A stretch of 64,000 nucleotides of DNA from Bacteroidia bacterium (GTDB lineage Bacteria; Bacteroidota; Bacteroidia; 2-12-FULL-35-15), in assembly GCA_036170475.1 (NCBI GenBank), contig JAVHPE010000206.1, positions 91,080 to 155,079 of the forward strand, read 5' to 3'. The position numbers and the translations under genes were made by a program. Under the pieces are notes generated by a model that had not been told where the DNA came from, made no database searches, and saw nothing but the letters and a program-made list of their open reading frames with translations. This document shows, piece by piece, positions 5,060 through 64,000 of the stretch. Every line of letters begins with the position of its first letter. Within the stretch, counting starts at the first letter, position 1.

Positions 5060-6424
5060 TTGAAACCAAGTATCCCTAAAGGCACCCGTGATTTTTCACC
5101 TCAGGAAATGGTGAAACGCAATTATATTTTTGACACCATCAAACAAGTGTTTCAATGCTTTGGCTATTTGCCAATTGAAACACCCGCTATGGAGAACCTT
5201 TCTACCCTCATGGGAAAGTACGGGGAAGAGGGAGATAAATTGATTTTTAAGATTTTGAATTCGGGAGATTTCAGGGCTGGGGTTGATATGAATTTAGATT
5301 CAAAGCAATTGGTAAATAAGATTTCCGAAAAAGCGCTCAAATATGATCTAACCGTTCCCTTCGCTCGATATGTTGTTCAACACCAGAGTGAAATTACTTT
5401 TCCATTTAAGCGTTACCAGATACAACCTGTTTGGCGAGCAGATCGCCCGCAAAAGGGACGTTACCGTGAATTTTATCAATGTGATGCTGATGTGATTGGA
5501 AGTAATTCATTGGTAAATGAAGTGGAGTTGGTACAGCTGATTGATGAGGTATTTACAAAATTAAGTGTTCCTGTTTTAATCAAAATTAATAATCGCAAAA
5601 TTTTGCAAGGCTTAGGGGAAGTCATTGGCGAACAAAATAGAATTATAGATATCACAGTTGCCTTAGACAAATATGATAAGATCGGAGAAGATATATACAC
5701 CGAGTTAGAGCAAAAAGGTTTTCAAAAAGATAAGATATCAAAATTGAAAAGTTTTATTGATGAATTCTCATCCTTAAAGGAAGGAAATGAAAGATTGAAC
5801 TTCTTGAAAAGAATTTTTTCCGATACTTCAATTGGGATGAAGGGCGTTGAAGAAGTTGAGTTCATTTTTAAAACATTGGGTATGTTATATGTTGATCAAA
5901 AGATGCCAGAATTGGAGATTGATTTAGCATTAGCACGAGGACTCAATTACTATACAGGAGCAATTTTTGAGGTAAAAGCGAATACAGGTACATTTACCAG
6001 CAGCATTTGTGGTGGAGGAAGATACGACGACTTAACAGGTATTTTCGGTTTGCCGAATATGTCAGGAGTTGGTATTTCATTCGGAGCAGACAGGATTTAT
6101 GATGTATTGAATGAATTAAATCTATTTCCTGAATCGGTTGCTGCCAGTACAAAATTATTATTTGTATCATTTGGTTTAACCGAACAAAATTATTGTTTGC
6201 CGTTATTGGCACAGGTTAGGAAAGCAGGTATTAATTCAGAGATTTATCCGGATGCAGGAGCAAAAATGAAAAAACAAATGGGTTATGCAGATGATAAAAA
6301 AATTGCATTTGTTGTAATTGTTGGAAGTGATGAAATTCAAAGTGGTCTTCTAACATTGAAGAACATGACATCCGGCGAGCAGGAGAAATTAAGTATAGAA
6401 AATATTATTCAAAAATTGAAATAA
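5060..6424 (+). CDS. hisS: Histidine--tRNA ligase
   Basis: N-terminus [13 protein letters not shown], class II aaRS motifs (GGGRYDDL) and a C-terminal anticodon-binding domain. Starts at a TTG. Confidence 0.92.
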
Positions 6425-6434
6425 AATTTACCAT

Positions 6435-6500
6435 GGAGACACGGAGAACACAAAGAAACACAGAGCCTCGGTGTACCTCCGTTAACTCTGTGTCTCCGTG
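6435..6500. promoter_or_regulatory. Structured intergenic element (two 7-bp helices with alternative pairings) between hisS and the ammonia-lyase gene
   Basis: cacggag (6440-6446) pairs with ctccgtg (6494-6500), and cacagag (6459-6465) pairs with ctctgtg (6486-6492). The apical loop contains ctccgt, which can pair alternatively with acggag. An A8 run follows. Confidence 0.3.
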
Positions 6501-6514
6501 TTAAAAAAAATATC

Positions 6515-7996
6515 ATGCATCACATTTCTACAACAAAATTAGATTTCGAAAAAATCTCAGAAATCATTTCTGGAAATAAAAAACTTGCCTTATCGGATGA
6601 AGTAAAAACAAATATTATACGTTGCCGTGAATATCTGGATAAAAAAATGGCTTCACAAAAAGAGCCTATTTATGGTATTAATACAGGATTTGGTTCTTTA
6701 TGCGATATAATTATTCCTCCTGAAGATTTAGAAAAATTACAACAGAATTTAGTGATGTCACATGCCTGTGGAACAGGTGATGAAGTACCACAAGATATTG
6801 TGAAATTACTGTTGCTGTTAAAAATTCAGGCTTTCTCTTATGGCAAATCAGGAGTTCAAATCCAAACCGTTGAACGTTTAATCTATTTTTTCAATAATGA
6901 TATTTTACCAATAGTTTATCAACAAGGCTCATTGGGCGCTTCCGGGGATTTATCTCCTCTGGCACATATGAGTTTACCATTGCTGGGATTAGGTAAAGTT
7001 TTTTATCGGGGTAAAAAACAAAATAGTGCTGATGTATTAAAACAATTGAATTTGCAACCTATTCAACTGAAATCAAAAGAAGGGCTGGCACTTTTAAATG
7101 GCACCCAATTTATGAGTGCTTATGGTGTATGGTGTTTATTGCGAACCAAAAAATTGAGTCTTGCTGCTGATTTAATCAGTGCCGTTTCATTAGATGCTTT
7201 TGATGGTCGTATGGAGCCTTTTAAATTGCACCTTCACACTATACGTCCGCATAAGGGGCAAATGCAGACTGCCAAAAATATGCTCAAGCTATTAGATGGC
7301 AGTGAATTGATCAAACGTAAAAAAGTTCATGTACAGGATCCTTATTCATTCAGATGTATCCCACAGGTACATGGTGCATCGAAGGATGTAATTGGGTATG
7401 CGGAGAATGTTTTCTTAACCGAAATAAATTCTGTGACAGACAACCCGACAATTTTCCCAGATGAAGATGAAGTAATTTCCGGTGGTAACTTTCACGGGCA
7501 GCCTCTTGCATTAGCATTGGATTTTTTAGCCATCGCATTAGCGGAGTTAGGTAATATCTCCGAAAGACGTACCTATCAATTGATTTCCGGGACACGTGGT
7601 TTGCCCTCCTTTTTGGTAGCAACCCCCGGATTAAATTCCGGATTTATGATTCCTCAATATACCGCTGCAAGTATTGTAAGTCAGAACAAACAATTATGCT
7701 CTCCCGCTTCTATTGATTCTATTGTTAGTTCAAACGGACAGGAAGACCATGTTTCAATGGGTGCCAATGCAGCCACAAAATGTTATAAAGTAGTTGAAAA
7801 TTTGCAACGTATACTTGCCATAGAATTGTTCAATGCCTCACAGGCAATGGAATTCAGAAGACCTTTAAAGTCATCACCAATAATTGAAAATTTAATTTCT
7901 GACTATCGTAAACAGGTTCCGTTTATAGATTCAGATAAAATAATGTACACCGAAATTGAAAAAAGTGTTCAGTTTTTGACAAATAAAAAATGGTAA
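6515..7996 (+). CDS. hutH: Histidine ammonia-lyase family (HAL/PAL/TAL, MIO-dependent) enzyme
   Basis: Has the ASG triad (GSLGASGDLSPLAHM) that forms the MIO cofactor, with HAL-like length and overall similarity. Substrate (His vs Tyr/Phe) cannot be decided from sequence alone. Confidence 0.8.
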   Translation: MHHISTTKLDFEKISEIISGNKKLALSDEVKTNIIRCREYLDKKMASQKEPIYGINTGFGSLCDIIIPPEDLEKLQQNLVMSHACGTGDEVPQDIVKLLLLLKIQAFSYGKSGVQIQTVERLIYFFNNDILPIVYQQGSLGASGDLSPLAHMSLPLLGLGKVFYRGKKQNSADVLKQLNLQPIQLKSKEGLALLNGTQFMSAYGVWCLLRTKKLSLAADLISAVSLDAFDGRMEPFKLHLHTIRPHKGQMQTAKNMLKLLDGSELIKRKKVHVQDPYSFRCIPQVHGASKDVIGYAENVFLTEINSVTDNPTIFPDEDEVISGGNFHGQPLALALDFLAIALAELGNISERRTYQLISGTRGLPSFLVATPGLNSGFMIPQYTAASIVSQNKQLCSPASIDSIVSSNGQEDHVSMGANAATKCYKVVENLQRILAIELFNASQAMEFRRPLKSSPIIENLISDYRKQVPFIDSDKIMYTEIEKSVQFLTNKKW

Positions 7997-8604
7997 ATAA
8001 ATTCAAAGCTCATCCATGGCATGGAATTAATATTGGTTCTAATGCACCAAAAATGGTCACAGCCTTTATTGAAATTGTCCCTACAGATACAGTTAAATAT
8101 GAAATTGATAAAGAAAGCGGTCATCTGAAAATTGACCGTCCTCAAAAATTTTCCAATGTTGTTCCTACTTTATATGGTTTTATTCCACAAACATATTGTG
8201 ATATAAAAGTAGCGGAATATGCCGCTTTGAAATCAGGCAGGGAAATAAAAAAAGGTGATGGAGACCCGCTTGACATCTGTGTTTTAAGTGAACGCCCCAT
8301 CACTCATGGTGATATAATGATGCAGGCATTTCCTATTGGTGGTATACGCATGATTGATAAAGGGGAAGCAGATGATAAAATTATAGCGGTAATGAAAGAT
8401 GATGAAGTTTATGAGGGCTGGAAAGATATAAGTGATTGTACCGAAGCTATTGTAAACCGATTGAAACATTACTTCTTAACCTATAAAAATATTCCGGGAT
8501 TGGAAAAACCTACTTGTGAAATCACCAATGTTTACGGTCGTGAAGAAGCGTATGAAGTGATAAGAAGAAGTATGGAAGATTATAAAAATAAATTTTTGTT
8601 GTAG
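7990..8604 (+). CDS. ppa: Inorganic pyrophosphatase (family I)
   Basis: HPWH N-terminus and a FIEIVPTDTVKYEIDKESGHLKIDR metal-binding core. Overlaps the upstream gene by 7 nt. Confidence 0.85.
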   Translation: MVNKFKAHPWHGINIGSNAPKMVTAFIEIVPTDTVKYEIDKESGHLKIDRPQKFSNVVPTLYGFIPQTYCDIKVAEYAALKSGREIKKGDGDPLDICVLSERPITHGDIMMQAFPIGGIRMIDKGEADDKIIAVMKDDEVYEGWKDISDCTEAIVNRLKHYFLTYKNIPGLEKPTCEITNVYGREEAYEVIRRSMEDYKNKFLL

Positions 8605-52796: not shown

Positions 52797-52818
52797 AAGC
52801 CTTTCTCTCGAAAGGCTT
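52797..52818 (-). terminator. Rho-independent terminator (bidirectional form)
   Basis: aagcctttc-tctc-gaaaggctt (9-bp stem) with an A-run on the 5' side and a T-run on the 3' side. Downstream of the minus-strand gene ending at 52940. Confidence 0.5.
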
Positions 52819-52939: not shown

Positions 52940-53452
52940 TTATTCTGCTTCGATAAAATTATAATAGTATTCACTTAGTTCATCGTGAAATCCCCAGCCT
53001 ATATTTTTTGTATCGTCCATTATTTTTTTACAACGGAGTTTAAAACGCTCTTGCATCCCGTTTGTTTTAATATACTTACCGACATCGTGAAACATCCCGG
53101 CAATACTATTGTAAAAAGGTTCGTCAATATCACCAAAAGCATTTGTGTAGTTTACACCACATTCCACATAAAACAACATTACATCTGCAATATCATTTTC
53201 TGTTGGAGATAATTTTTTGAAGCCGGTAATAGCTTTGCGGGCTTCCCGTAATTTTAAATCGTAATTGAAATTAGTGCTGATACATTTACTGATTATTTTC
53301 TTTGCATCCTCTTTAGCTTTATCACTATTGGGATTGATAGAAAACTCATAGTATGTTTTTACATCTTTATATTTAGCATTCAGCTCAATTATTTGAGCAA
53401 CCAACTGTTCTTTACTAAATTGTTGCAAATATTTTTTTAACGACATAACCAT
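52940..53452 (-). CDS. Hypothetical protein (170 aa)
   Basis: ORF only; good coding character. Confidence 0.45.
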   Translation of the reverse strand: MVMSLKKYLQQFSKEQLVAQIIELNAKYKDVKTYYEFSINPNSDKAKEDAKKIISKCISTNFNYDLKLREARKAITGFKKLSPTENDIADVMLFYVECGVNYTNAFGDIDEPFYNSIAGMFHDVGKYIKTNGMQERFKLRCKKIMDDTKNIGWGFHDELSEYYYNFIEAE

Positions 53453-53478: not shown

Positions 53479-54297
53479 TTATAATGGAACTCCGGGAATA
53501 CTTATTTTATTGATGCACCAATAATCATATTCATATTTTAACATAAAATCTCCAGTTCCTGAAAAAACTTTTTTCTCATCACTACCTTCTATAATGCCTG
53601 TATAGTTTATATCAAAACACACATCCGCTGTATTTTCATCTATTTTCAATACTGTTATTTTAAACTGTTTTAATTTGAAGGAATCGAAGGCTTTCCGAAA
53701 TACTTCCATTTGCTTTACTGCATCTTCTTGTTTTATAATGCCGTCCTTAGAATAAATCTCGCTGGAAATAGGCATAAAGGAAGGATTCAGATTTATTTTT
53801 TTATTTAAAAGACCTTCTACTAATTCTTTACAATTGTTTTTAATGTCATCTTCATGATTGGGATGAAATTCTTCATAAATAAAATTATGTGTCACCCCTT
53901 CAATCATCATATCGTCTGTTTCTTCAAGGAATAATTCTTCTGTAATAAAACGGTACAATTCCCTGTCATCAACTTTGCAAATGGTATCTATACCAATTCC
54001 TTTTAGACCAAGCAGATTTAAAATTCTTTTTAGTTCAAATTTTATTTCAGTTGCGGAAATTTCATTCACAGGTTTGTATGCAGGCTTCTCAACAAAATCA
54101 TAAATACTAATTCTTTTACTTTTTGCGTAAGAATCTTCAAATTTTTGTACCTGATTTAGCCACTGACCTTCCTGTTCGGGAGATAATTTTTTTTCGGATG
54201 GAGAGAAAAAACTTGTTCCCTGCTCTAAAGACATTTTCATTTTTTTTATTTCGTTCTCTATCCTGAGCTTGTTAAGTTCGTCTTCTTCGTTTTCCAT
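53479..54297 (-). CDS. Hypothetical protein (272 aa)
   Basis: ORF only; acidic, coiled-coil N-terminus. Confidence 0.45.
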   Translation of the reverse strand: MENEEDELNKLRIENEIKKMKMSLEQGTSFFSPSEKKLSPEQEGQWLNQVQKFEDSYAKSKRISIYDFVEKPAYKPVNEISATEIKFELKRILNLLGLKGIGIDTICKVDDRELYRFITEELFLEETDDMMIEGVTHNFIYEEFHPNHEDDIKNNCKELVEGLLNKKINLNPSFMPISSEIYSKDGIIKQEDAVKQMEVFRKAFDSFKLKQFKITVLKIDENTADVCFDINYTGIIEGSDEKKVFSGTGDFMLKYEYDYWCINKISIPGVPL

Positions 54298-54510
54298 GCA
54301 ATTAGTTTTTATAAAACATCAATCGTTTACTTTCTAATAACCACTTGTTCCTCTAATTCGCGCAATTTTAGCTTCTTTTAACGTTTATCTAAATATTTCT
54401 GCTAATCCTTTCTGCCCAATGCCGGCTTTTTTCTCAGCAAGCGTATTGTTTTTTTTCGACTGGTTTTCGCTAGTTATTTAGGCGGTGTCTTCTTTAGTCT
54501 TTCTTTCATT

Positions 54511-54583
54511 TGCCCAATCACTACCCAATTAGCCCAATTATTGCCCAATCAATGTGCAATTTGTGCAATTAATGTGCAATTCA
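54511..54583. repeat. Phased short tandem repeats: 4x (T/G)(G/C)CCCAAT then 3x GTGCAAT, about 10-bp period
   Basis: CCCAAT at 54513, 54524, 54533 and 54544. GTGCAAT at 54554, 54563 and 54574. The last copy abuts the stop codon of the AlbA_2 gene. Confidence 0.65.
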
Positions 54584-55897
54584 TTTTAGCTGATAAAATG
54601 CCCCGGCCCCTTTAACATCACTCGGAACAAGAATTTTTTTCTGAACTAAGTCAGCAAGGTCATTACTGGCAGTATTTCGAGAACAATCATTTAATAACTG
54701 ATAGTCTTTATTTGTAATTTTTCCTTTATCTTGAATAAAAACCACCGCTTTCAATTGTCGCTCGTTAAGCCCAATTTTAATTAGTTGTTCTTTGGTTAGG
54801 TTGTCTTTAAAAAGAGTTACCAAAAAACCTCCTTGAAATTCCTTGATTTCCGGTTCGGGCAATTCAGCATCCCTGCAAGCATCGTAAATTTTTAAAGTTC
54901 CACGACCCCATGAATCAATAAACCCTCCCTTAAAACATACATCGGCAAGTAATACATTTCGAGGTTCTGAGGCGTGAAATCCTTTTAGGGCTTCAAAAGT
55001 TAATCCTTGTGGAAGTGTGCCTGTATTCCAAAAATTAATCTTGTTATCATAAACACGTATTTGAATAGGGGCGCCCAAATAGTTGCGGTGTACAAGAGCA
55101 TTTAAAATAATTTCACGCAGAGCAGGTGTTGGATATTCACTTTTTTCAATCCGGTGCATACCTTCAAATTCAACTTTCCTGATAAGGAATTTATGATTCA
55201 ATTGATTTAAAACCGCTTGAAGTAATGAAAACAAGTTTCCTTCCTCTGTTTCCTGAAAAACAAGGTCTGCATCGTCTTTCCCGAAACGACCTATTTTTAC
55301 AAATGTATTTGGATAAAACTTTCCCGGGTCTTTGCCGAACAATATTATGGCAGCACGTTTTAATTGACCATTTTTTGAAAGACGCAATTTTTCCAATAAA
55401 TCTTTTGTGGAAAGCCCTTCATGTTCCGGCAAGCGACCTGATTTTACAGAGGCATTCAGGTATAATTTAATACTTGGCTCGTCAATGTCATTTAATGTTG
55501 CCTCAGGCTCAATCACATCGTCCCATGTTTTGCCCGATTTCTTCAACAGAAAATCATTCAGAGATGCCCCTGTTAATTCATGTTTGGTACTTCCACTCCG
55601 GTAATAATATCTTCCCCTTAATGAAATAGGAACAGTATATGGATGTGTAACTATTTCAATAAAACGTTTTCCTTTTTCTTCGTGTAAATTTACTTCAACA
55701 GAAATACCCATAGCGTTTCTAACCTTATTTGGTATGTCTTCCATCAATTTTTTATAATCATCAACGCCAACAGCTTTTCCGTTATCGTCTTTGCCGATGA
55801 AGATTATACCTCCTTGGGCGTTGGCAAAACCACATACCCATTTTAGATAGTCTTCGTGCCAACTTTGTTTGTATTCTATATTTTGTTGTTCCGGCAT
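54581..55897 (-). CDS. Schlafen-like AlbA_2 (divergent AAA) domain protein with HATPase_c_4 and C-terminal wHTH
   Basis: N-terminal IEYKQSW…FANAQGGIIFIGKDDNGKAVGV (AlbA_2 signature). Middle REIILNALVHRNY…IQIRVYDNKINFWNTG…RN.LLAD…GRG segment (HATPase_c_4). C-terminal LNERQLKAV…GKITNKDYQLL (wHTH). Confidence 0.7.
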   Translation of the reverse strand: MPEQQNIEYKQSWHEDYLKWVCGFANAQGGIIFIGKDDNGKAVGVDDYKKLMEDIPNKVRNAMGISVEVNLHEEKGKRFIEIVTHPYTVPISLRGRYYYRSGSTKHELTGASLNDFLLKKSGKTWDDVIEPEATLNDIDEPSIKLYLNASVKSGRLPEHEGLSTKDLLEKLRLSKNGQLKRAAIILFGKDPGKFYPNTFVKIGRFGKDDADLVFQETEEGNLFSLLQAVLNQLNHKFLIRKVEFEGMHRIEKSEYPTPALREIILNALVHRNYLGAPIQIRVYDNKINFWNTGTLPQGLTFEALKGFHASEPRNVLLADVCFKGGFIDSWGRGTLKIYDACRDAELPEPEIKEFQGGFLVTLFKDNLTKEQLIKIGLNERQLKAVVFIQDKGKITNKDYQLLNDCSRNTASNDLADLVQKKILVPSDVKGAGAFYQLK

Positions 55898-55918
55898 TGG
55901 TTGTTTTCCATTATTTAG

Positions 55919-57859
55919 TTAAAGGATGCTTTCTTTTGAAAAATCTACTTTTAATTGCTTCGCTTGTTGTCTGAAAAGTTCCATGCCTGGAATGTCATCA
56001 TATCTTTCACTAAGTTTATTCCTTAGTCCAAACAATCTCTTTTCTGCTGTGTCAACAAGTTGGTCGAAAATGCAAACATTTACCTTTCCTCTGTCCCCAA
56101 CTTTTACAATTAATTCAACCTTTTCTGAAAATTCTTTTCCGATTACATAACAATCTATACTTGGGTTTCCAATAAGATTCCCACAATTAATAAAATTTTC
56201 AACATAACTCATTGCTTGATTTCTTTCCTTTCGTGAAAGCTTTGAGCCACCTTTTTTCAATTCAATTAAAAGTATTTTGCTGACATTTGAAAGCGAGGAA
56301 TCGATTTCAAATGTTTCTGTTCCGGTTACTGAGAGTGTTGAGTTTGATAAAACAACAATATCGGGCCTCTTTCTGTGATTATTAAATACATTTTTTTGAA
56401 TTTCTGTTTTGAATACAATCTCAACAGCATTTTGTAATTGTCTATTTGAAGCATATTCTGCCGATTCGTATTCAGGACTAAATAACCACCTTGCACTTGT
56501 TACCAATGGATGCAGTACATGAAGTTCATCTACATCTTTATCACCTGCTAATTTTCTTATCGCCTCAATAACAGAGATTCTATTATCAATTTCATCTAGC
56601 ACAGTTAAAGCATCCCTTACCGACCAATTTTCAAGTAACATGTTTAGACCAGAAATATCATCTTCGGTGAGCTTTGAAAGCTTTACTAATAAATCTTTTC
56701 CACTTCTTGTTTTTTCAAGATTGATGATTGCTTCAACTGCTATCGAAATTGCTTCTTGTTTTGCAGTAGGATGAGCAACGGTGATAGTTTCAATGGCTTC
56801 ATTCAATTCGTATCTTGCAAGAGGCGATAAAACAGCATAGTCTTGAGCAAATTCACTTTTTATTTGTTCTTTGGTTTCTTCAATATTTTCTTTTGCAACC
56901 ACACTAAACATTTCATTTACATATTCTCCGACAGCTCTGTAAACTTCATTCATGAGTTCTCCTTGTTTAAAGCCTGTCCAATCTTCAAAAATGTAATCTG
57001 CCAAGTCATTAGTTTTTACAACAACAGTATATCGCCTTGCATATTTGGTTCTTCCGTCAAGAATAAATTCGTTTCCTAAAATCCAAGAAGGTTCGCCAAC
57101 TAAGCGCCCACCTTGCCAGAAGGCAATACCCTGATATATTGTGGAACGCGCTGTTTTTTGTGAGTCAATGAAATGAACTTGAAGATTGATGTTTTTTACC
57201 GAAATTGTTTTAGTGTTCATTAAACCGGAAAGTTGTTCAAGAGCGACTGTCTTTTTGTTTATTGAAACTATAAACTTTGGGTCGTGAAGAAATCTTGCTG
57301 AAATAATTTCTAAAATTTTTTGTGCCTTTGGTAAATTTTTGGCTACAATAACTTCCAATCTTGTTCCTGATGTTTTTGATTCTGCAAATTCATTTTTTTT
57401 AATTACAAATGGTTGTGTTTCACTTATTGTTGTAATTACAAAAGTTGATTTTACCCCTTCTGCATTTGTGATTACCGTATATTCATTATTGAAACATAAT
57501 AATCCATGTCGTCCAATTCCGTTTCTTCCGTAAGCAAAACGTTTTGCATCAATACCCTTTGGAAATATTACATTTTTGCCTTGGTGTTTCAACCTGTTAT
57601 ATCCAAGTTTCATCCATCTGCTATAAAACTGCTCTTTTGTTAAACCTGTTCCATTATCTTCAATAACTAATTTGCTTCCGTAATCTTCTGGGATGCTAAT
57701 GTTTACAATTGTTGCGCCTGCATCCCAAGCATTAGCGACTAATTCAGTTAAAGCAATCTCAGGATAATTGACGATTGCCCCAAGCGTTCTAATTAGGTAA
57801 TCTTCTTCAAATAAAGAACCTTGTGTAACTGGTGTTTTTTGTTGTGATGGTTTTGCCAT
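55919..57859 (-). CDS. GHKL-family (MORC/HATPase_c_3-like) ATPase fused to a C-terminal PD-(D/E)xK (NucS/Mrr-like) nuclease-type domain
   Basis: Bergerat-fold motifs are present: N-box ELVANAWDAGA, G1 IEDNGTGL and G2 GRNGIGRHG. The C-terminus carries RPDIVVL…(27 aa)…ILLIELKKGG…QAMSY, matching the D…(E/Q)xK restriction-endonuclease signature (compare NucS VVIELKRG). Confidence 0.65.
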   Translation of the reverse strand: MAKPSQQKTPVTQGSLFEEDYLIRTLGAIVNYPEIALTELVANAWDAGATIVNISIPEDYGSKLVIEDNGTGLTKEQFYSRWMKLGYNRLKHQGKNVIFPKGIDAKRFAYGRNGIGRHGLLCFNNEYTVITNAEGVKSTFVITTISETQPFVIKKNEFAESKTSGTRLEVIVAKNLPKAQKILEIISARFLHDPKFIVSINKKTVALEQLSGLMNTKTISVKNINLQVHFIDSQKTARSTIYQGIAFWQGGRLVGEPSWILGNEFILDGRTKYARRYTVVVKTNDLADYIFEDWTGFKQGELMNEVYRAVGEYVNEMFSVVAKENIEETKEQIKSEFAQDYAVLSPLARYELNEAIETITVAHPTAKQEAISIAVEAIINLEKTRSGKDLLVKLSKLTEDDISGLNMLLENWSVRDALTVLDEIDNRISVIEAIRKLAGDKDVDELHVLHPLVTSARWLFSPEYESAEYASNRQLQNAVEIVFKTEIQKNVFNNHRKRPDIVVLSNSTLSVTGTETFEIDSSLSNVSKILLIELKKGGSKLSRKERNQAMSYVENFINCGNLIGNPSIDCYVIGKEFSEKVELIVKVGDRGKVNVCIFDQLVDTAEKRLFGLRNKLSERYDDIPGMELFRQQAKQLKVDFSKESIL

Positions 57860-57919
57860 TTGTAAATTAAATTTTTTATCAAGTATTATGTTTCGACATC
57901 CTCATTCCTCCCTCCAAGC

Positions 57920-58447
57920 TCAATCCTGCGTTCCATCAATATCAAGCTTTTTCTTTAATTCATCTAAACTAATAGTGTTCTTTTTCTTTTCTTCATCGCT
58001 CATGTTTTTATATTCGTCAACAACATTTTTTATTCTATCAAAATCATTCTGAATTTCTTCTTCTTCAAATCCGGCATAAGTCATTTCGTTTAAACAATGC
58101 GCAATTATTTCGAGTTCAGTAAATTCTTTCAGTGTGAGTTTATCTATTCCCATTCCTAACCATTGGTTCCAAGGAGTATATTCAATAGCAAGGCCATCAT
58201 TAAAATCATCTTTATCGGGTTTAAGATTTATTCCGGCAACATCTACAATAGAGGGTTCAAATGTTTCATCATCATAATGTTGGTTTATTATAATGTTAAT
58301 AGCAACTTCCACAGGCTCCATCAGTTTTAACTTTTCAAAAACTTCTTTGTACTCGCTTATGTTATTTTCCTGTTCGGGATATAGAGCAAGCAATGTAGCT
58401 TCTACACTTAGCCAATTGGTTGTTTTTATTAGCGAATTGAATTTCAT
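57920..58447 (-). CDS. Acidic hypothetical protein (175 aa)
   Basis: ORF only; Glu/Asp-rich C-terminus. Lies 60 bp upstream of the GHKL-nuclease gene on the same strand. Confidence 0.45.
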   Translation of the reverse strand: MKFNSLIKTTNWLSVEATLLALYPEQENNISEYKEVFEKLKLMEPVEVAINIIINQHYDDETFEPSIVDVAGINLKPDKDDFNDGLAIEYTPWNQWLGMGIDKLTLKEFTELEIIAHCLNEMTYAGFEEEEIQNDFDRIKNVVDEYKNMSDEEKKKNTISLDELKKKLDIDGTQD

Positions 58448-58544
58448 TTTATAATTATTCTTGACAATAGTATTTTATATTTTTCTATTTATTGCTCAAC
58501 TCCTCCTTAATACCTCAAACTTTCGCTGTTTTTTGCTGAAAAAC

Positions 58545-59006
58545 CTATTCTATCCACTCAAAAAGATATTCAGGCTTGTGTTCAATTTCAAATTTGTTTA
58601 AAAAATCAATGTATTCTTCTTTGAATGTTTGCTTTTTATGATGTTGCTCTTGATTTAAAATATAATTGTAAACTTGTCCCATTTGTGAATGCGAATAGGA
58701 AAACGCTCCATAGCCTTCTTGCCATTGAAATTTTCCTTTAATAAATTTTTTTTCATTAATAAATTTTGAAGAGTTGTTTTTTATATCTCTTACCAAATCA
58801 GAAATTGCCATAGATGGTTTTAAACCAATAAAACAATGAATGTGGTCAGCAGCACCATTTACAATAATTGATTTTTGTTCCTTCCCTCTGATAATTCCGG
58901 AAATATATTTATGCAATTCATTTTTCCATTGTTTTCCAATAAGATTTTCTCTGCCTTTAACAGCAAATACAACTTGAATATAAATTTGTGAAAATGTGCC
59001 TGCCAT
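58545..59006 (-). CDS. REP-associated tyrosine transposase (RAYT; IS200-like HuH), second copy
   Basis: HuH motif ADHIHCFIGL and a Tyr region (…EEYIDFL). About 35-40% identical to RAYT-1, with conserved QEGYGAFS and EQHHKK segments. Confidence 0.85.
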   Translation of the reverse strand: MAGTFSQIYIQVVFAVKGRENLIGKQWKNELHKYISGIIRGKEQKSIIVNGAADHIHCFIGLKPSMAISDLVRDIKNNSSKFINEKKFIKGKFQWQEGYGAFSYSHSQMGQVYNYILNQEQHHKKQTFKEEYIDFLNKFEIEHKPEYLFEWIE

Positions 59007-59023
59007 AGCTTGTATTATTTAAA

Positions 59024-59169
59024 ATCCCGAAGGGATGTAATTATTATAAAAATTAAAAATCCATTTTGTGAAACCCTGAAGGGGTGATATTATTTTTATC
59101 AATTTCACCCCTTCGGGGTTCATATCATGTTTTACATTCTATTCTATAATCATATCAGCCCTTCGGGCT
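59024..59169. repeat. REP-like GC-rich hairpin array upstream of RAYT-2 (4 hairpins, alternating orientation)
   Basis: atcccGAAgggat (59024-36), accctGAAggggt (59073-85), caccccTTCggggt (59106-19) and agcccTTCgggct (59157-69). A different sequence family from the REP-1 units. Confidence 0.65.
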
Positions 59170-59172
59170 TGT

Positions 59173-61641
59173 TTATGCCACTTCCTCTTTTACACCCCAA
59201 ACTTGAGCAATTTTGTTTTTTATTTTTGCCTCAAAAAGTTGAATTAGTTTTTTGTTTGATTCTACTATTTGTATTTCTTCATCAATAGCTGTTACAATTT
59301 CCTTTTGTTCTTCGGTTGGAGGAATGGGTATTTGAATTTCATTTAAATGAGCTTGATTCAATTTTGGTTGTGCCGCACCAGTAACGTGTTTACTAATATC
59401 AATTTGGTTAATATAGGTTTCAACGTATTTGTGTAAAATACTACTCTCAAATTTTAAAACGTGAGCATGATTATTAACCCAATATTTTCCAGTTGCGGTA
59501 AATGCTATTGGATAAACTCTTGAAACTAAATTTGCTCCATCTTCTGAAATTAGTAAAAGTGTATCATCAAAAATAAAATCTTCTACGTAGTCCACTATTC
59601 CCGATGCACCGTAATATGGATATTTCCCCTCTGTTCTGTCTCCTTTTGTAACTGGCTTTCTTTTACCGTCTAAATTTTTTGCTAATTGTCCCAGTTCCAC
59701 CATTTCCCAATTAGGATTAAAGCTAATTGTAGGTTTGTAGTTGTTTACTATTTGTTTTGCTCCATCAATTATTTTTTGGTAACCTTCAATTTCGTTTACT
59801 ATTTGTTGTTGTATTTCGAGTGGTGGTAATGGAATTTCTAAACTTTTTATAAATGATAACGAAGCCATTCTAAAACCACCATCACCTAAAGCGTAAAATT
59901 GGTCGTATAAGGTTTGACTTATTAAATAAAGAAATTTCTTGTCAAGTTGATTCTCATCCTTAACCTGTAATCCAGCGATATTTTGATTGGTAGTTGTTTC
60001 AAATTCTAAATAGGCGGTTTTTCCAATTGTTGCGCCAACTAAAGCAATTAGTGTTGTGCCTTTGGGGAACAATTTTACATTTGATTTTTTAAAACCTAAT
60101 TCGGTAATAAATGTGTCAGCATTATAAATCATTTGATTTTTACAAACAGTAGAACCGACCCAAGGTATAGTACCATTTTCCCAATACGAATTTTCAGTTT
60201 TACTAGGCGTTCCACCCGATTGAATTAAACAAACTTCTTCTAGTTTTACAATATTAAAGACTGTTTGGGAGGCTTCTGTGATAAAATACCTCTCTGCACT
60301 TAAAACAGCATCTTTATTTTCTAAAACGGTTTTCTTCTCTACCAATGTAGCTAAACTTGGTAATACACTACTGAAACCTAACAGGTTTTGAAAACCTGTC
60401 AGGTTTAGTGCTTCCTTATACTTTTCGAATGTTTGCAGTGCAATAGGCAAATCATTTTTAGCGTGCTCCCTACGTTGTGCGCCTAAATCAAAACCATCGT
60501 TTTCTATTTTCAAAAATAAAATGTGTTCACTTTTTTTTGATAATTTTTTATCTAAAATTAATATGGATGTTTTTACACCGCTATAGGGGTTGAAACATCC
60601 GGCAGGCAGAGAGACAACCGCTATTAAACTATCATTCACTAAATGCTTGCGTAATTCTTTATATGCGGTTTGGCTTGTTGCAACAATACCGTTTGGTACA
60701 ACAATTCCGGCTCTTCCATTACTGTTTAAATGTTCTGCGATGTAATCGGTAAATAATACTTCGGCTTTATTTGCTAGTACTCCAAATTTTTTGTGTGGTC
60801 GTATTCCCCCCTTTGGTGTCATAAATGGAGGGTTTGCCAATATTACATCAAAGGTTTCCTGCCAACGGTCTTCGCTGCTTAATGTATCGTACTCATAAAT
60901 TTGAGGAGTAGCAAAACCATGTAAATACATATTAGCTAAACTCAAGCGTACCATATCAGGGCTTATGTCATAACCTGCAAAGTTTGTTGCTAATTTTTTT
61001 CGGTCGTCAGGTTTTAGTTTATCGCCTTGTCGTTTATCGGTATTCTGATTTAAAATATGTTTGTATGCGCTCAATAAGAAACCTGCTGTACCGCAGGCAG
61101 GGTCTAAAACGGTTTCATTCTTTTGAGGATTAACACAAGCTGTCACAAAATCAATGATGTGGCGTGGTGTTCTGAATTGTCCGGCATCACCTTGGCTTCC
61201 CATCACACTCAACAAATATTCAAATGCATCACCTAACTTTTCGCTATGGCTATATTCAAATTCGTTAATGTATTTTAAAAATAATTTTAATGTACTTGGG
61301 TCACGGTAGGGCAGGTAAGCATTTTTGAAAATATTTCGGAACAGTTCAGGAATATTGGGATTAGTATTTAATTTTTCTAAAGCATCGCTGTATAATGCCA
61401 GCATATCAGAACCACTTAGCGAAGGGTCAAATAATTTTCTCCATCCATATTTTGCATATTCTCCGGTAAAGAATTTTGCTTTGCCTTTAAATTTCTCTAC
61501 GGCTTCCTTGTCCATATCATCCATGAACTTATAAATAAGCGCCAATGTAATTTGCTCAATCTGACTTTTAGGGTCGGGAACCTTGCCTACCAATACATCA
61601 CGGCAATCATCAATATTTTTCTTTGTTATGTTATCGAGCAT
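59173..61641 (-). CDS. hsdM: Type I restriction-modification N6-adenine DNA methyltransferase fused to a specificity (HsdS, two TRDs) moiety
   Basis: HsdM N-terminal domain and a SAM-binding LDPACGTAGFL segment. Catalytic motif IV is NPPF. The C-terminal about 370 aa contain two target-recognition domains separated by a conserved spacer (LPPLEIQQQIV…; …IPIPPTEEQKEIV), i.e. a complete HsdS in the same ORF. Confidence 0.85.
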   Translation of the reverse strand: MLDNITKKNIDDCRDVLVGKVPDPKSQIEQITLALIYKFMDDMDKEAVEKFKGKAKFFTGEYAKYGWRKLFDPSLSGSDMLALYSDALEKLNTNPNIPELFRNIFKNAYLPYRDPSTLKLFLKYINEFEYSHSEKLGDAFEYLLSVMGSQGDAGQFRTPRHIIDFVTACVNPQKNETVLDPACGTAGFLLSAYKHILNQNTDKRQGDKLKPDDRKKLATNFAGYDISPDMVRLSLANMYLHGFATPQIYEYDTLSSEDRWQETFDVILANPPFMTPKGGIRPHKKFGVLANKAEVLFTDYIAEHLNSNGRAGIVVPNGIVATSQTAYKELRKHLVNDSLIAVVSLPAGCFNPYSGVKTSILILDKKLSKKSEHILFLKIENDGFDLGAQRREHAKNDLPIALQTFEKYKEALNLTGFQNLLGFSSVLPSLATLVEKKTVLENKDAVLSAERYFITEASQTVFNIVKLEEVCLIQSGGTPSKTENSYWENGTIPWVGSTVCKNQMIYNADTFITELGFKKSNVKLFPKGTTLIALVGATIGKTAYLEFETTTNQNIAGLQVKDENQLDKKFLYLISQTLYDQFYALGDGGFRMASLSFIKSLEIPLPPLEIQQQIVNEIEGYQKIIDGAKQIVNNYKPTISFNPNWEMVELGQLAKNLDGKRKPVTKGDRTEGKYPYYGASGIVDYVEDFIFDDTLLLISEDGANLVSRVYPIAFTATGKYWVNNHAHVLKFESSILHKYVETYINQIDISKHVTGAAQPKLNQAHLNEIQIPIPPTEEQKEIVTAIDEEIQIVESNKKLIQLFEAKIKNKIAQVWGVKEEVA

Positions 61642-62459
61642 TATTTCAGTTTTTTAAGTGCTTTGCTATTTAAAAGCGATTTCATTTGTGTAATTGCCAT
61701 CTCATTTAATTGAAACAATCTTTCGGGCTGAGCTAATTTTTGTTTGATTAGCATTGCATTTATGCTTTCCAAATTGGTTAATACAACCAACTGTTCAAGG
61801 TTTGCCTCATCTCTAATATTACCTTTTGCTTTTGGGTTTTCGACTCTCCATTCCTTGGCGGTTTTGCCAAACAGAGCCATATTCAATAAGTCGGCTTCGT
61901 TGGCATACACAAAAGAAATTTGTTGTTTGCTTAGTTTAGCAGGAATAAGATTTTCCTTAATAGCATCAGTATGAATTTGATAATTTACTTTTGATAAAGT
62001 TCTTTGTAAATTCCAATCTAATTTTAAACGGTCGTTTTCATCTGCTTTTAAGCGTTGGAATTCTTTTATAATGTATAATTTGAATTCAATTGAAATCCAA
62101 GATGCGAATTCAAAAGCAATGTCTTTGTGTGCAAAAGTTCCACCATATCTTCCCGACTTTGAAATAAGTCCAATAGCACTGGTGTTTTCTATCCATCGTT
62201 TAGGAGTCATTACAAAACTGTTAAGTCCAGCCTGTTTTCTAAACCCCTCGAATTCGAGGGGTTTAAAATTTGGATTATATAATATCTCCCAAAAACCTAA
62301 AAGTTCAATGGTATTTCTATTTCGTAACCAATTTTGAATAATTGCATCCATATTGCTCGAATCTTTATGTCGTGCAATATCTGTAAGAGAGATAAAATCT
62401 TCGTTACTTTCTTGATAGATAGCAATTTCAATTCCCTTTATATTTATTTTTTTACTCAT
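61641..62459 (-). CDS. KilA-N domain protein embedded in the type I R-M operon
   Basis: N-terminal INIKGIEIAIYQESNEDFISLTDIAR…GRYGGTFAHKDIAFEFASWIS (KilA-N/APSES-like DNA-binding domain) plus a C-terminal helical region. Its stop shares a base with the hsdMS start. Confidence 0.65.
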   Translation of the reverse strand: MSKKINIKGIEIAIYQESNEDFISLTDIARHKDSSNMDAIIQNWLRNRNTIELLGFWEILYNPNFKPLEFEGFRKQAGLNSFVMTPKRWIENTSAIGLISKSGRYGGTFAHKDIAFEFASWISIEFKLYIIKEFQRLKADENDRLKLDWNLQRTLSKVNYQIHTDAIKENLIPAKLSKQQISFVYANEADLLNMALFGKTAKEWRVENPKAKGNIRDEANLEQLVVLTNLESINAMLIKQKLAQPERLFQLNEMAITQMKSLLNSKALKKLK

Positions 62460-62509
62460 ATTTCAATTTTAATTGTGGCGAATTTGCCATTTTTAAAAAT
62501 TATAACCAC

Positions 62510-64000
62510 TTAAGAACTTATAAATTTATTTAACGGCACATATGTTTTAATGTAATAAGGCAATTTACTTTTCATATCATCATCTACACGGTTAAAATCT
62601 TCTACATTAAAAGTTGGGTTGTGATACAATTCTGTAAACTCTTGTTGGTCGATTATATCTCTTACTGTTGGGTCGGTAATGTAAGCGTAAAAGAAATAGC
62701 GCAAAGACTGCAAATCACTGACATTAGAAATATTATTGGTGCTAATAAATTTATCAAATTCATCACTCAATAAATCATCTTTACCTTTTATTTTGTTGCC
62801 GAAATAAATTAGTTCTAATAATTCTCTCCAACCAATTTTACGGTCTATTTTTAGTGATTTACGTAATTTTTCTAAATCAAAATATTCTTCAGGTTTGTTA
62901 TCGTATTTTTCTTTTGCCCTCGCAGATGCTATTTCAACATCGCCAGCCTCCATCAATAATTTTATTTCATCATCTGTTTTTACTTTTTCTTCAAACTGCT
63001 GAAAAAACATCCGGTCAACTTTCATACCCTGAAAATCAACTTGTTTTTCTTGAAAGGAAGTTATTTTATCGTTTTCTTTATACTCAAAACCTTCCCGCTT
63101 TGCTTTTAAAGTGTCCTCAAATACCAGCACTTCATCACCTTTGTCAATATTGATAGGCAATTTCAATACTTGGTCGTACTGATATTTTTCTTCAAAATAT
63201 TCGCAGGTAGCGAAGAAATCAAAAAGTTTAAATGCTTTTTTGTCAATAGAAATTGTTTCTACTTCGCCCAAATCATTTTTGAATTTGTGTTCAAATTTAT
63301 GAATACGGGTTCCTCTTCCTTTTATCTGAATAAATTCTGTTGGTGAAAAAATCGGTCGCATTAATCCAAGGTTCAAAATATTGGGGCAATCCCAACCTGT
63401 GGTCATCATTCCAACGGTTACACAAATTCTCGCTATGCTTGTTTTATATGATTCTAAAATTTCATTGTCTTTTGCAAAATTGCTAAAACCCAATAATTTG
63501 TCGTTGCTATAATCAATAGACATTTGCTGACTGTTGGCTACATTAGAGGTTACCTGAACAGCAAAATCGCTTTGATATTTATTCGGGAATAATTGATGTG
63601 CATATTCATTAAGCAATTGTGCCAATTTTGCAGCATGATTTTGTGAAACCGCAAAAACGAGGCTCTTTCCAAACTCTCCGCTAATTGGGTCTTTTAAGCC
63701 ATTTTCAATAAATGTTTTACAGAAAACACGGTTTGTTTCTTCCGAGAAAAATTTTCGTTCAAAATGATTTTGCTTGTAATTAACTTCTTCTAAAATGTCC
63801 TCTTGCTCAGTACTGGCAATGGTTACCATAATTCCGTAACCTTGCTCGGATAAAAGTTTTGTAGTTACATCAGTTCTTGCATCCACAACAATTGGTTGAC
63901 GTAAAAATCCGTCTTTAGCACCATCTGTAAGTGTATAACGGTATGTAGGTTGACCACTTTCACAACCAAAAGTGATGTAAGTATCTAACAACATTCTGCG
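62510..64000 (-). CDS. hsdR: Type I restriction enzyme R subunit (HsdR), C-terminal portion; gene continues beyond the window end
   Basis: Helicase C-terminal motifs (TGWDCPNILNL, motif VI QIKGRGTR) followed by the long helical C-terminal domain typical of HsdR. The ORF is open to the window edge. Confidence 0.85.
   Translation of the reverse strand, partial: RRMLLDTYITFGCESGQPTYRYTLTDGAKDGFLRQPIVVDARTDVTTKLLSEQGYGIMVTIASTEQEDILEEVNYKQNHFERKFFSEETNRVFCKTFIENGLKDPISGEFGKSLVFAVSQNHAAKLAQLLNEYAHQLFPNKYQSDFAVQVTSNVANSQQMSIDYSNDKLLGFSNFAKDNEILESYKTSIARICVTVGMMTTGWDCPNILNLGLMRPIFSPTEFIQIKGRGTRIHKFEHKFKNDLGEVETISIDKKAFKLFDFFATCEYFEEKYQYDQVLKLPINIDKGDEVLVFEDTLKAKREGFEYKENDKITSFQEKQVDFQGMKVDRMFFQQFEEKVKTDDEIKLLMEAGDVEIASARAKEKYDNKPEEYFDLEKLRKSLKIDRKIGWRELLELIYFGNKIKGKDDLLSDEFDKFISTNNISNVSDLQSLRYFFYAYITDPTVRDIIDQQEFTELYHNPTFNVEDFNRVDDDMKSKLPYYIKTYVPLNKFISS

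Follow-up and report, generated by a model that had tools for sequence, protein, structure and literature searches.

A minus-strand defence island of probably separately mobile units in a Bacteroidia genome, with a conserved repeat array attached to its AlbA_2/HATPase_c_4 gene

We analysed a stretch of 64,000 nucleotides (nt) from the genome of a Bacteroidia bacterium (contig JAVHPE010000206.1, positions 91,080 to 155,079), referred to below as the window, which carries at 54.5-64 kb a defence-type run of co-directional open reading frames (ORFs) on the minus strand. The run includes a type I restriction–modification (R-M) system with an embedded KilA-N protein, a Y1 tyrosine transposase with hairpins resembling repetitive extragenic palindromes (REP), a DUF6557 protein, a GHKL ATPase fused to a PD-(D/E)xK nuclease (the GHKL-nuclease), and a Schlafen-like AlbA_2/HATPase_c_4 protein whose gene is followed by a phased repeat array (Table 1). 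A first-pass annotation had described nine co-directional features with short gaps, and all nine were found at the positions it gave, with the named domains, by the ORF listing, Pfam, PADLOC and NCBIfam. It had also proposed that the region is a single defence-island-like operon. The analysis presented here suggests, with a probability of about 0.68, that the region is a defence island of separately mobile units which are co-directional incidentally, and not one operon-level system.

Table 1. Features of the co-directional run in the window (position 1 is the first nucleotide of the window)
Feature	Position	Strand	Basis
HsdR, C-terminal part	ORF 62510-63994, continuing past the window end (feature 62510..64000)	minus	PADLOC REase_I 4.5e-25
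KilA-N protein	61641-62459	minus	Pfam KilA-N 4e-21; PADLOC PDC-S22
HsdM-HsdS fusion, 822 aa	59173-61641	minus	N6_Mtase, Methylase_S
REP-like hairpin cluster, CCC-GAAGGG type	59023..59169	.	inverted repeats and hairpins
IS200/RAYT-like Y1 tyrosine transposase, 153 aa	58545-59006	minus	Pfam Y1_Tnp 6.3e-25
DUF6557 protein, 175 aa	57920-58447	minus	Pfam DUF6557 1.9e-46
GHKL-nuclease, 646 aa	55919-57859	minus	HATPase_c_3 7e-17; weak HSDR_N_2
AlbA_2 + HATPase_c_4 + winged helix protein, 438 aa	54581-55897	minus	SLFN_AlbA_2 1.1e-14; HATPase_c_4 4.7e-20
Phased tandem repeats	54508..54583	minus	Tandem Repeats Finder (TRF)
272-aa ORF	53479-54297	minus	ORF listing
DUF6155 ORF	52940-53452	minus	Pfam
Terminator-like hairpin	52797-52818		hairpin scan; end of the co-directional run

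From HsdR downward, the gaps between successive genes are 50, -1, 166, 97, 60 and 21 nt. The co-directional run extends past the limits given to it earlier, since two more ORFs lie 3' of the repeats and are followed by a strong terminator-like hairpin; the 272-aa ORF has no match in Pfam, PADLOC or NCBIfam. A scan for sigma-70 promoters returned 52 sites against 47.5 expected and is uninformative, the model being ill-suited to Bacteroidota.

All three subunits of a type I R-M system, HsdR, HsdM and HsdS, are represented in the window. The HsdR part aligns to positions 498-737 of the 1107 positions of the REase_I profile and also matches the NCBIfam EcoAI-family R subunit (5e-21) and Helicase_C; its N-terminus with the nuclease motif falls beyond the window, and the HsdR call rests on the C-terminal part. 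The HsdM-HsdS fusion matches N6_Mtase (4.6e-48) and, in two stretches corresponding to two target-recognition domains, Methylase_S (8.6e-50), while PADLOC assigns it to MTase_I (2e-90) and Specificity_I (1e-64). The KilA-N protein matches the PDC-S22 profile over its full length (1.1e-135, residues 2-271 on profile positions 2-273 of 281). Its gene is embedded between hsdR and hsdMS, and its stop codon overlaps the hsdMS start by 1 nt, which suggests translational coupling inside the R-M operon. The arrangement is like that of type I R-M systems with PDC-S22, where HsdR, the KilA-N protein and HsdM/S form one co-directional, partly overlapping block, and unlike them in that HsdM and HsdS are fused in the window. 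PDC-S22 is a PADLOC candidate phage-defence family only, and the titles and abstracts returned by a literature search on PDC-S22 and on KilA-N with type I restriction contained no functional work.

The Y1 gene behind this block exceeds the cut-off of the NCBIfam family transpos_IS200 (3.5e-18). Directly upstream of it lie small G+C-rich hairpins (59024-59036, 59073-59085 and 59157-59169) and two pairs of inverted repeats (59023-59055/59088-59120 and 59072-59091/59101-59120). Within the window, the features that would fit a REP-associated tyrosine transposase (RAYT) are the Y1_Tnp domain and the hairpins on its upstream side. Rfam matches resembling microRNA precursors at 59022-59130 are spurious, being caused by the hairpin, and Rfam gave no credible match in the remainder of 52.4-64 kb.

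The DUF6557 protein is acidic (isoelectric point 4.3, with 39 D+E against 18 K+R), and a literature search on this family found nothing. Five contexts of its homologues (50-59% identity) were sampled. The gene is last in a type I R-M operon unrelated to that of the window and also holding a Y1 transposase (locus L156), lies beside RhuM and toxin–antitoxin genes (L150), stands between an integrase, which directly precedes it, and AbiE (L159), and is found in housekeeping surroundings (L153 and L158). The operon in L156 (1181-5531) is a distant one, with HsdM 27% identical to that of the window; its Y1_Tnp gene, coding for a protein 37% identical to the Y1 transposase of the window, is located between hsdS and hsdM, and the DUF6557 gene follows 4 nt past hsdM. 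DUF6557, and perhaps Y1 transposases too, may be recurring passengers of type I R-M operons.

In the GHKL-nuclease, the ATPase covers approximately residues 20-190 and is followed by a middle domain of the Hsp90/MORC type (approximately 190-300) and a long linker of helices (approximately 300-440). The PD-(D/E)xK domain comes last (approximately 440-620), and its residues 492-563 give the weak HSDR_N_2 match. In an alignment of 75 diverse relatives (26-55% identical) the Bergerat residues E39, N43 and D46 (motif I), D68, G70 and G72 (motif II, DxGxG) and G114/G116 (lid) are invariant, as are D500, E533, K535 and Y552 of the nuclease, and conservation reaches 90% or more at E445 and Q548; the Bergerat and D/E-K motifs had been read correctly in the first-pass annotation. 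A sequence search of PDB gave MutL and PMS2 as top matches. The AlphaFold model was built from the 75-sequence alignment (predicted local distance difference test, pLDDT, 86), and a run with 19 close homologues (pLDDT 58) was set aside. The predicted fold is Hsp90/MORC-like in the N-terminal and middle domains and FokI/BspD6I/Shedu-like in the nuclease part; judged on this model, the structural match of the nuclease core to solved SduA appears real, yet it is not the best match. Foldseek against PDB and BFVD returned GHKL matches only (Hsp90, TRAP1, MORC and phage RIIA) and left the nuclease domain uninformed. Hidden Markov model (HMM) searches of PDB with C-terminal profiles (436-646 and 396-625) returned no nuclease, and LSm3 and PER2 were chance matches.

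The family is large, with more than 3000 database matches, the best 120 of which are 69-100% identical, and identity reaches 85% in the nearest database homologues; clustering at 50% left 296 representatives with E<1e-30, nearly all of 630-660 aa. Full-length relatives 46-75% identical occur in Bacteroidota, Desulfobacterota, Planctomycetota, Verrucomicrobiota, Acidobacteriota, Paenibacillus, Clostridia and Betaproteobacteria (L015-L086), and relatives of about 30% identity reside on plasmids of Rhizobium and Agrobacterium (H1-H8). This patchy spread across phyla points to extensive horizontal transfer. The database label of these proteins is just “ATP-binding protein”, and PADLOC makes no call for them. 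As a side observation, a gene of the 37-kD nucleoid-associated protein family (NA37) follows the GHKL gene after 10-24 nt in L053 (3951-9788) and L008 (10001-13030); L053 carries two convergent GHKL genes, each with an NA37 partner.

Gene neighbourhoods were compared in 79 GHKL loci, 78 of them besides the window, which represent at least 8 phyla and relatives 46-75% identical; their ORFs were called and clustered by BLAST. A Pfam census of the direct neighbours (75 upstream and 73 downstream proteins) contained no family with more than 4 members, and these neighbours include R-M subunits as well as DNA polymerase I, glycosyl hydrolases and peptidyl-tRNA hydrolase. Clustered R-M genes of type I, III or IIG lie not more than three genes from the GHKL gene in at least 19 of the 78 loci, so that the recurrence in R-M contexts noted in the first-pass annotation is borne out. 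In at least 10 loci, again with types I, III and IIG, the GHKL gene overlaps the last R-M gene or is located not more than 11 nt past it; for example, it closely follows a type III Res-Mod pair in L003-L007. The flanks often contain integrases, transposases, toxin–antitoxin genes and defence systems. Because the neighbours vary while R-M genes recur, one can suggest that the GHKL gene is independently mobile and is drawn to the 3' ends of R-M operons.

The same loci bear on the idea that the 175-aa DUF6557 protein, the GHKL-nuclease and the AlbA_2 protein belong together. DUF6557 adjoins the GHKL gene in none of the 78 other loci, and the DUF6557 protein of the window clusters just with its own duplicate (L001). 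The AlbA_2 protein of the window clusters with three other loci, its close homologue being present in one of the 78 alone (L056), where an AlbA_2/HATPase_c_4 protein 67% identical is encoded three genes downstream of the GHKL gene. In L045 and L062, a different AlbA_2 + Fic-like_C protein is encoded in the upstream R-M-like operon that the GHKL gene ends. With no dominant partner in the census, the proposal of a fixed trio is not supported, and the three genes are probably separately mobile units. In the window itself, the GHKL and AlbA_2 genes are probably co-transcribed because they are separated by 21 nt only and the hairpin and terminator scan predicted no terminator-like site in this interval.

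The class of the GHKL-nuclease can be given precisely. Iyer, Abhiman and Aravind (2008) defined paraMORC3 computationally as a combination of GHKL, S5 and E-D-ExK nuclease domains, found in Bacteroidetes and Proteobacteria in R-M-linked and standalone copies, and predicted that it acts as a helper of R-M systems, raising a possible non-R-M role for the standalone copies (PMC2292703). The window protein has in common with this description the GHKL domain with intact motifs, the middle (S5-type) domain and the C-terminal restriction-endonuclease fold with E-D-ExK, and its family has in common the prevalence in Bacteroidetes and Proteobacteria and the sporadic, laterally mobile spread in R-M-linked and standalone copies. 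Matched feature by feature to the published description (GHKL motifs, middle domain, E-D-ExK nuclease and sporadic R-M-linked distribution), it belongs to the paraMORC3 class.

Function in this class is best illustrated by VcSduA of pandemic Vibrio cholerae, described in 2025 as a GHKL ATPase with a PD-(D/E)xK (DUF4263) nuclease, whose architecture its authors equated with paraMORC3 (PMC12137116). VcSduA alone protects E. coli against T1-like phages, and its E27A (ATPase) and K557A (nuclease) mutants are inactive (PMC12137116). Shedu homologues with HATPase_c_3 and an Hsp90/MORC-like middle domain had been catalogued by Gu et al. (PMC10441436), GHKL-type Shedu being Shedu type 1D (PMC10441436; Gu et al. 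2025), and the title of a work cited with VcSduA reports DNA-end sensing by Shedu (PMC12137116). The window protein resembles VcSduA in being one chain of about 600-650 aa with a GHKL ATPase, a middle/clamp domain and a PD-(D/E)xK nuclease, in having the motif I catalytic Glu and the ExK Lys, and in the adjacency of other defence genes; it differs in that the VcSduA nuclease is recognised as DUF4263 (SduA_C) and its own is not. Most likely, by analogy, the GHKL-nuclease of the window works like VcSduA. Since VcSduA is experimentally anti-phage as a single gene, the GHKL + PD-(D/E)xK kind is no longer merely predicted, and the earlier statement that such proteins had been predicted only computationally is outdated. 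We also considered the BbrUII/HgiDII type II enzymes (NCBIfam NF050001), which are similar in the GHKL-type N-terminal ATPase, length (a 659-position profile) and restriction context. This identity was ruled out by a score of 94 bits against a cut-off of 550 (8e-27), with the alignment limited to residues 37-209; neither a cognate cytosine methyltransferase gene nor a Vsr gene is in the window.

The last protein of the defence-type run combines SLFN_AlbA_2 (residues 3-108), HATPase_c_4 (275-362) and a C-terminal winged helix, and gives weak PADLOC matches to pAgo and Aga fusion proteins. Its family counts more than 7000 homologues under the database name “transcriptional regulator”; no homologue was found in the viral contigs searched. 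Homologues 73-84% identical were sampled for context, and in two of these loci, as in the window, the gene is docked behind a defence system: it is the last co-directional gene 23 nt past the stop codon of Gabija GajB in L087 (gene 7001-8317) and 25 nt past that of DISARM DrmB/MZB in L161 (gene 6001-7317), while in the window it begins 21 nt past the stop codon of the paraMORC3 nuclease. Ahead of its start codon, L087, L161 and the window share no conserved sequence. Other copies lie in an island of toxin–antitoxin genes and insertion sequences (L163) and among housekeeping or metabolic genes (L090 and L092). The HMM searches suggested for the three downstream proteins found the named domains. 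The contexts of DUF6557 and AlbA_2 are mixed, including both defence and housekeeping genes.

The combination of AlbA_2 and HATPase_c_4 has a genetic precedent in TrlG of Photorhabdus laumondii. A growth block that depends on temperature is relieved when TrlG is lost (PMC7554251), so that the intact protein limits growth under stress. TrlG (AlbA_2 at 14-128, HATPase_c_4 at 298-365) has the same Pfam architecture as the 438-aa protein of the window and is like it also in being mis-annotated as RecG and in its patchy distribution; it is unlike it in being gammaproteobacterial, and no 3' repeat array is reported for it. The trlR-trlF-trlG context is not reproduced, as the AlbA_2 gene has no small helix-turn-helix gene and no PHP/histidinol-phosphatase gene beside it, either in the window or in the 7 homologue contexts. 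More broadly, bacterial AlbA_2 domains are statistically defence-associated (PMC12680541), and the window protein shares with the AlbA_2 nucleases of the Schlafen, SAMD9 and Avs9 groups the N-terminal AlbA_2 fold and the defence-island association of their bacterial members (PMC12680541). In those nucleases, AlbA_2 is fused to STAND or helicase modules and an acidic RNase site has been demonstrated, whereas the partners of AlbA_2 in the window are HATPase_c_4 and a winged helix; in a small alignment, only E8 and K10 of its first motif are invariant.

Under the preferred reading, that of a defence island of separately mobile units, three such units would make up the region. The first would comprise HsdR, the PDC-S22 KilA-N protein and the fused HsdM-HsdS, followed by the Y1 transposase with the REP-like hairpins and possibly by DUF6557 as its tail. 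The second would be the GHKL-nuclease of paraMORC3 type, a nuclease defence consisting of one protein, and the third the AlbA_2/HATPase_c_4/winged-helix gene with its own 3' array, often last behind other defence systems. Of the earlier idea of a defence-island-like operon, the defence character holds, given the type I R-M system, PDC-S22, the paraMORC-type nuclease and the AlbA_2 protein; the part concerning one combined system does not. That genes lie side by side in such an island does not argue for a composite system.

In MutL, MORC and Hsp90, ATP binding dimerises the GHKL heads, and the cleavage domains of FokI and BspD6I cut only as pairs. We suppose that ATP binding would similarly dimerise the GHKL heads of the window protein, that the middle domain and the long helices (about 300-440) would close as a clamp around DNA, and that the two PD-(D/E)xK domains would thereby be brought together for double-strand cleavage of invading DNA. 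Because the nuclease domain resembles those of FokI and BspD6I, ATP-gated dimerisation would license double-strand cleavage. Behind an R-M system, restriction-made DNA ends may be the preferred substrate, and this would explain the recurring position of the GHKL gene 3' of R-M genes.

Several points weigh against this picture. The GHKL-nuclease family is known from sequence and predicted fold, and its proposed mechanism is derived from these throughout. SduA_C (PF14082) has no match in the window protein, either at full length (E<=0.1) or in residues 396-625 (E<=1), and for this reason it is linked to VcSduA by architecture and not by demonstrated orthology. Among the relatives, SduA_C gave sub-threshold matches in 2 of 75 full-length proteins and 4 of 38 C-terminal fragments, the best at 0.0025, and HSDR_N_2 matches more of them. 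The PADLOC SduA profile PDLC00401 matches 14 of the 75 relatives at E<0.01; its signal is lost in C-terminal fragments cut at residue 436, the match spanning the cut, and the sole localised SduA match, P0150, covers a helix of about 44 residues at the start of the nuclease domain. The ORF calling in the 79 loci was naive, which makes the R-M counts lower bounds, and the other neighbourhood samples are small (n=5 contexts for DUF6557 and n=7 for AlbA_2). Finally, the probable co-transcription of the GHKL and AlbA_2 genes may leave room for a local functional interaction.

Among the other explanations, the one with the best claim, although rather unlikely, treats the GHKL-nuclease not as autonomous but as an R-M-dependent helper, which would serve for ATP-driven looping or clamping, as a second nuclease or as a degrader of restricted DNA. 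This is the model already published by Iyer and Aravind (PMC2292703), and it agrees with the R-M genes located within three genes in at least 19 of the 78 loci, with the tight or overlapping junctions in at least 10, and with the weak N-terminal relation to the GHKL-containing BbrUII/HgiDII enzymes. However, about three quarters of the sampled loci are without a clustered R-M neighbour, many of them having housekeeping flanks, VcSduA is autonomous in a heterologous host (PMC12137116), and in the window the GHKL gene is separated from hsdMS by 1.3 kb and two unrelated genes.

It is very unlikely that the type I R-M system works together with a single accessory module, for restriction or abortive infection, made up of DUF6557, the GHKL-nuclease and the AlbA_2 protein. 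The co-directional genes with short gaps, the 21-nt interval without a terminator-like site, the AlbA_2 proteins of L056, L045 and L062, and the DUF6557 gene that ends the R-M operon of L156 would all be compatible with it, yet the association breaks down across loci (0 of 78 for DUF6557 and 1 of 78 for a close AlbA_2), and each gene is also found by itself, either in housekeeping surroundings or after unrelated systems (Gabija, DISARM, or an integrase with AbiE). Moreover, the IS200/RAYT-like gene and the REP hairpins separate the R-M genes from the three downstream genes, and a protein of the same architecture as the GHKL-nuclease works alone (PMC12137116). Least probable of all, in our opinion, is a non-defence role of the downstream genes, with the GHKL protein as a MutL-like repair or recombination enzyme, the AlbA_2 protein as a transcription regulator and the repeats as its operator. 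The ATPase does have MutL, PMS2 and MLH1 among its best matches in sequence and fold, housekeeping genes are neighbours at many loci, the AlbA_2 family bears a regulator's name, and a non-R-M role of standalone paraMORC3 was raised by Iyer et al. (PMC2292703). Against this stand the patchy spread of the GHKL gene across phyla at 46-75% identity with copies on plasmids, the frequency of mobile-element, toxin–antitoxin and defence genes in its flanks, the absence of a MutS partner, the statistical link of AlbA_2 domains to defence (PMC12680541) and the relief of the growth block upon TrlG loss (PMC7554251).

With the region read as an island of separate units, the window provides a clear representative, from Bacteroidota, of an ATPase-nuclease of the paraMORC3 type that is very widespread. 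The architectural link to VcSduA lets the family be annotated, by analogy, as probable single-gene nuclease defences, in a lineage with a nuclease domain that has diverged too far to be recognised by the Shedu profile. The locus consists of known kinds throughout, and the one unexpected result is the array attached to the AlbA_2 gene. Being conserved on an abundant Schlafen-like family, this 3' array is the most useful new lead, since it provides a handle on AlbA_2/HATPase_c_4 function.

The terminal phased repeats noted in the first-pass annotation proved real by TRF and are conserved at homologous loci. On the minus strand, the array of the window reads TGA-ATTGCACATT-AATTGCACAA-ATTGCACATT, followed by four ATTGGGC(A/T) units, with a period of 9-11 nt; it starts in the AlbA_2 stop codon, and the part before the ATTGGGC units is 3 x AATTGCACA. 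The form TGA-ATTGCACATT-AATTGCACAA-ATTGCACA occupies the equivalent place in L087 (8315-8370), L090 (8315-8355) and L092 (8315-8375), the flanks of which are otherwise unrelated, and the four ATTGGGC units are an addition of the window to this shared array. Over the first 38 nt the array is 89-100% identical between the window and these three loci, against 49-62% at the third codon positions of AlbA_2. The array is thus beyond chance and is kept more strictly than the synonymous sites of the gene. It belongs to no Rfam family, and a literature search on the repeat sequence was empty.

An exact 29-mer of the array was found in 57 metagenome contigs (L093-L149), where it follows an AlbA_2 homologue (42-86% identical) in 38; in most of the remaining contigs it is preceded by a remnant of the conserved AlbA_2 C-terminus, ...GAGAFYxLK. 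The distance between the stop codon and the 29-mer is not constant (3, 6 and 21-28 nt), which places the 29-mer in different reading frames, and selection therefore acts on the nucleic acid and not on a peptide. A peptide-coding reason for the conservation was rejected on the same ground, the 29-mer being in other frames elsewhere. The 11-codon ORF MNCTLIAQIAH, at 54548-54583 on the minus strand of the window, has its ATG overlapping the AlbA_2 stop codon (ATGA) and is probably incidental. The tandem unit differs between AlbA_2 lineages at the same position, the variants being AATTGCACA, ATTGCGTCA, ATGGCGGATA and ATACCGCCA; units of the ATGGCGG type occur in L056 and L163, ATACCGCCA in L161, and ATTGCGTCA in L106 and L132.

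As a working hypothesis, the repeats may be phased protein-binding sites belonging to the AlbA_2 gene, most simply for its own winged helix. Their distribution suggests that the gene and its 3' repeats travel together in a cassette-like manner. Tentatively, one can go further and suggest that the AlbA_2 gene and the array form a previously undescribed self-contained cassette, with the repeats as its own binding or recombination site, because the repeats are under stronger selection than synonymous sites, their units are lineage-specific, and the gene docks last behind Gabija, DISARM and paraMORC3. If true, the unit would be either a new kind of mobile cassette for defence or a sensor or regulator acting in cis, which plugs into resident defence operons.

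A further conserved module of about 100 nt occurs 10-120 nt 3' of the repeats in many loci (L094, L100, L111, L126, L131, L134, L135, L140, L114, L123, L163, L102, L120, L124 and L148) and is absent from the window. It has the form ATTTG-[arm]-CAC ... AAAGAG-[arm'], with group-specific complementary arms GTGGC/GCCAC, CAAGC/GCTTG and CAAGGCA/TGCCTTG. It has no match in Rfam; RNAalifold gave a weak energy (-4.2 kcal/mol) and compensatory changes in 6 of 12 pairs, and the module may represent a DNA hairpin or a structured RNA not described before.

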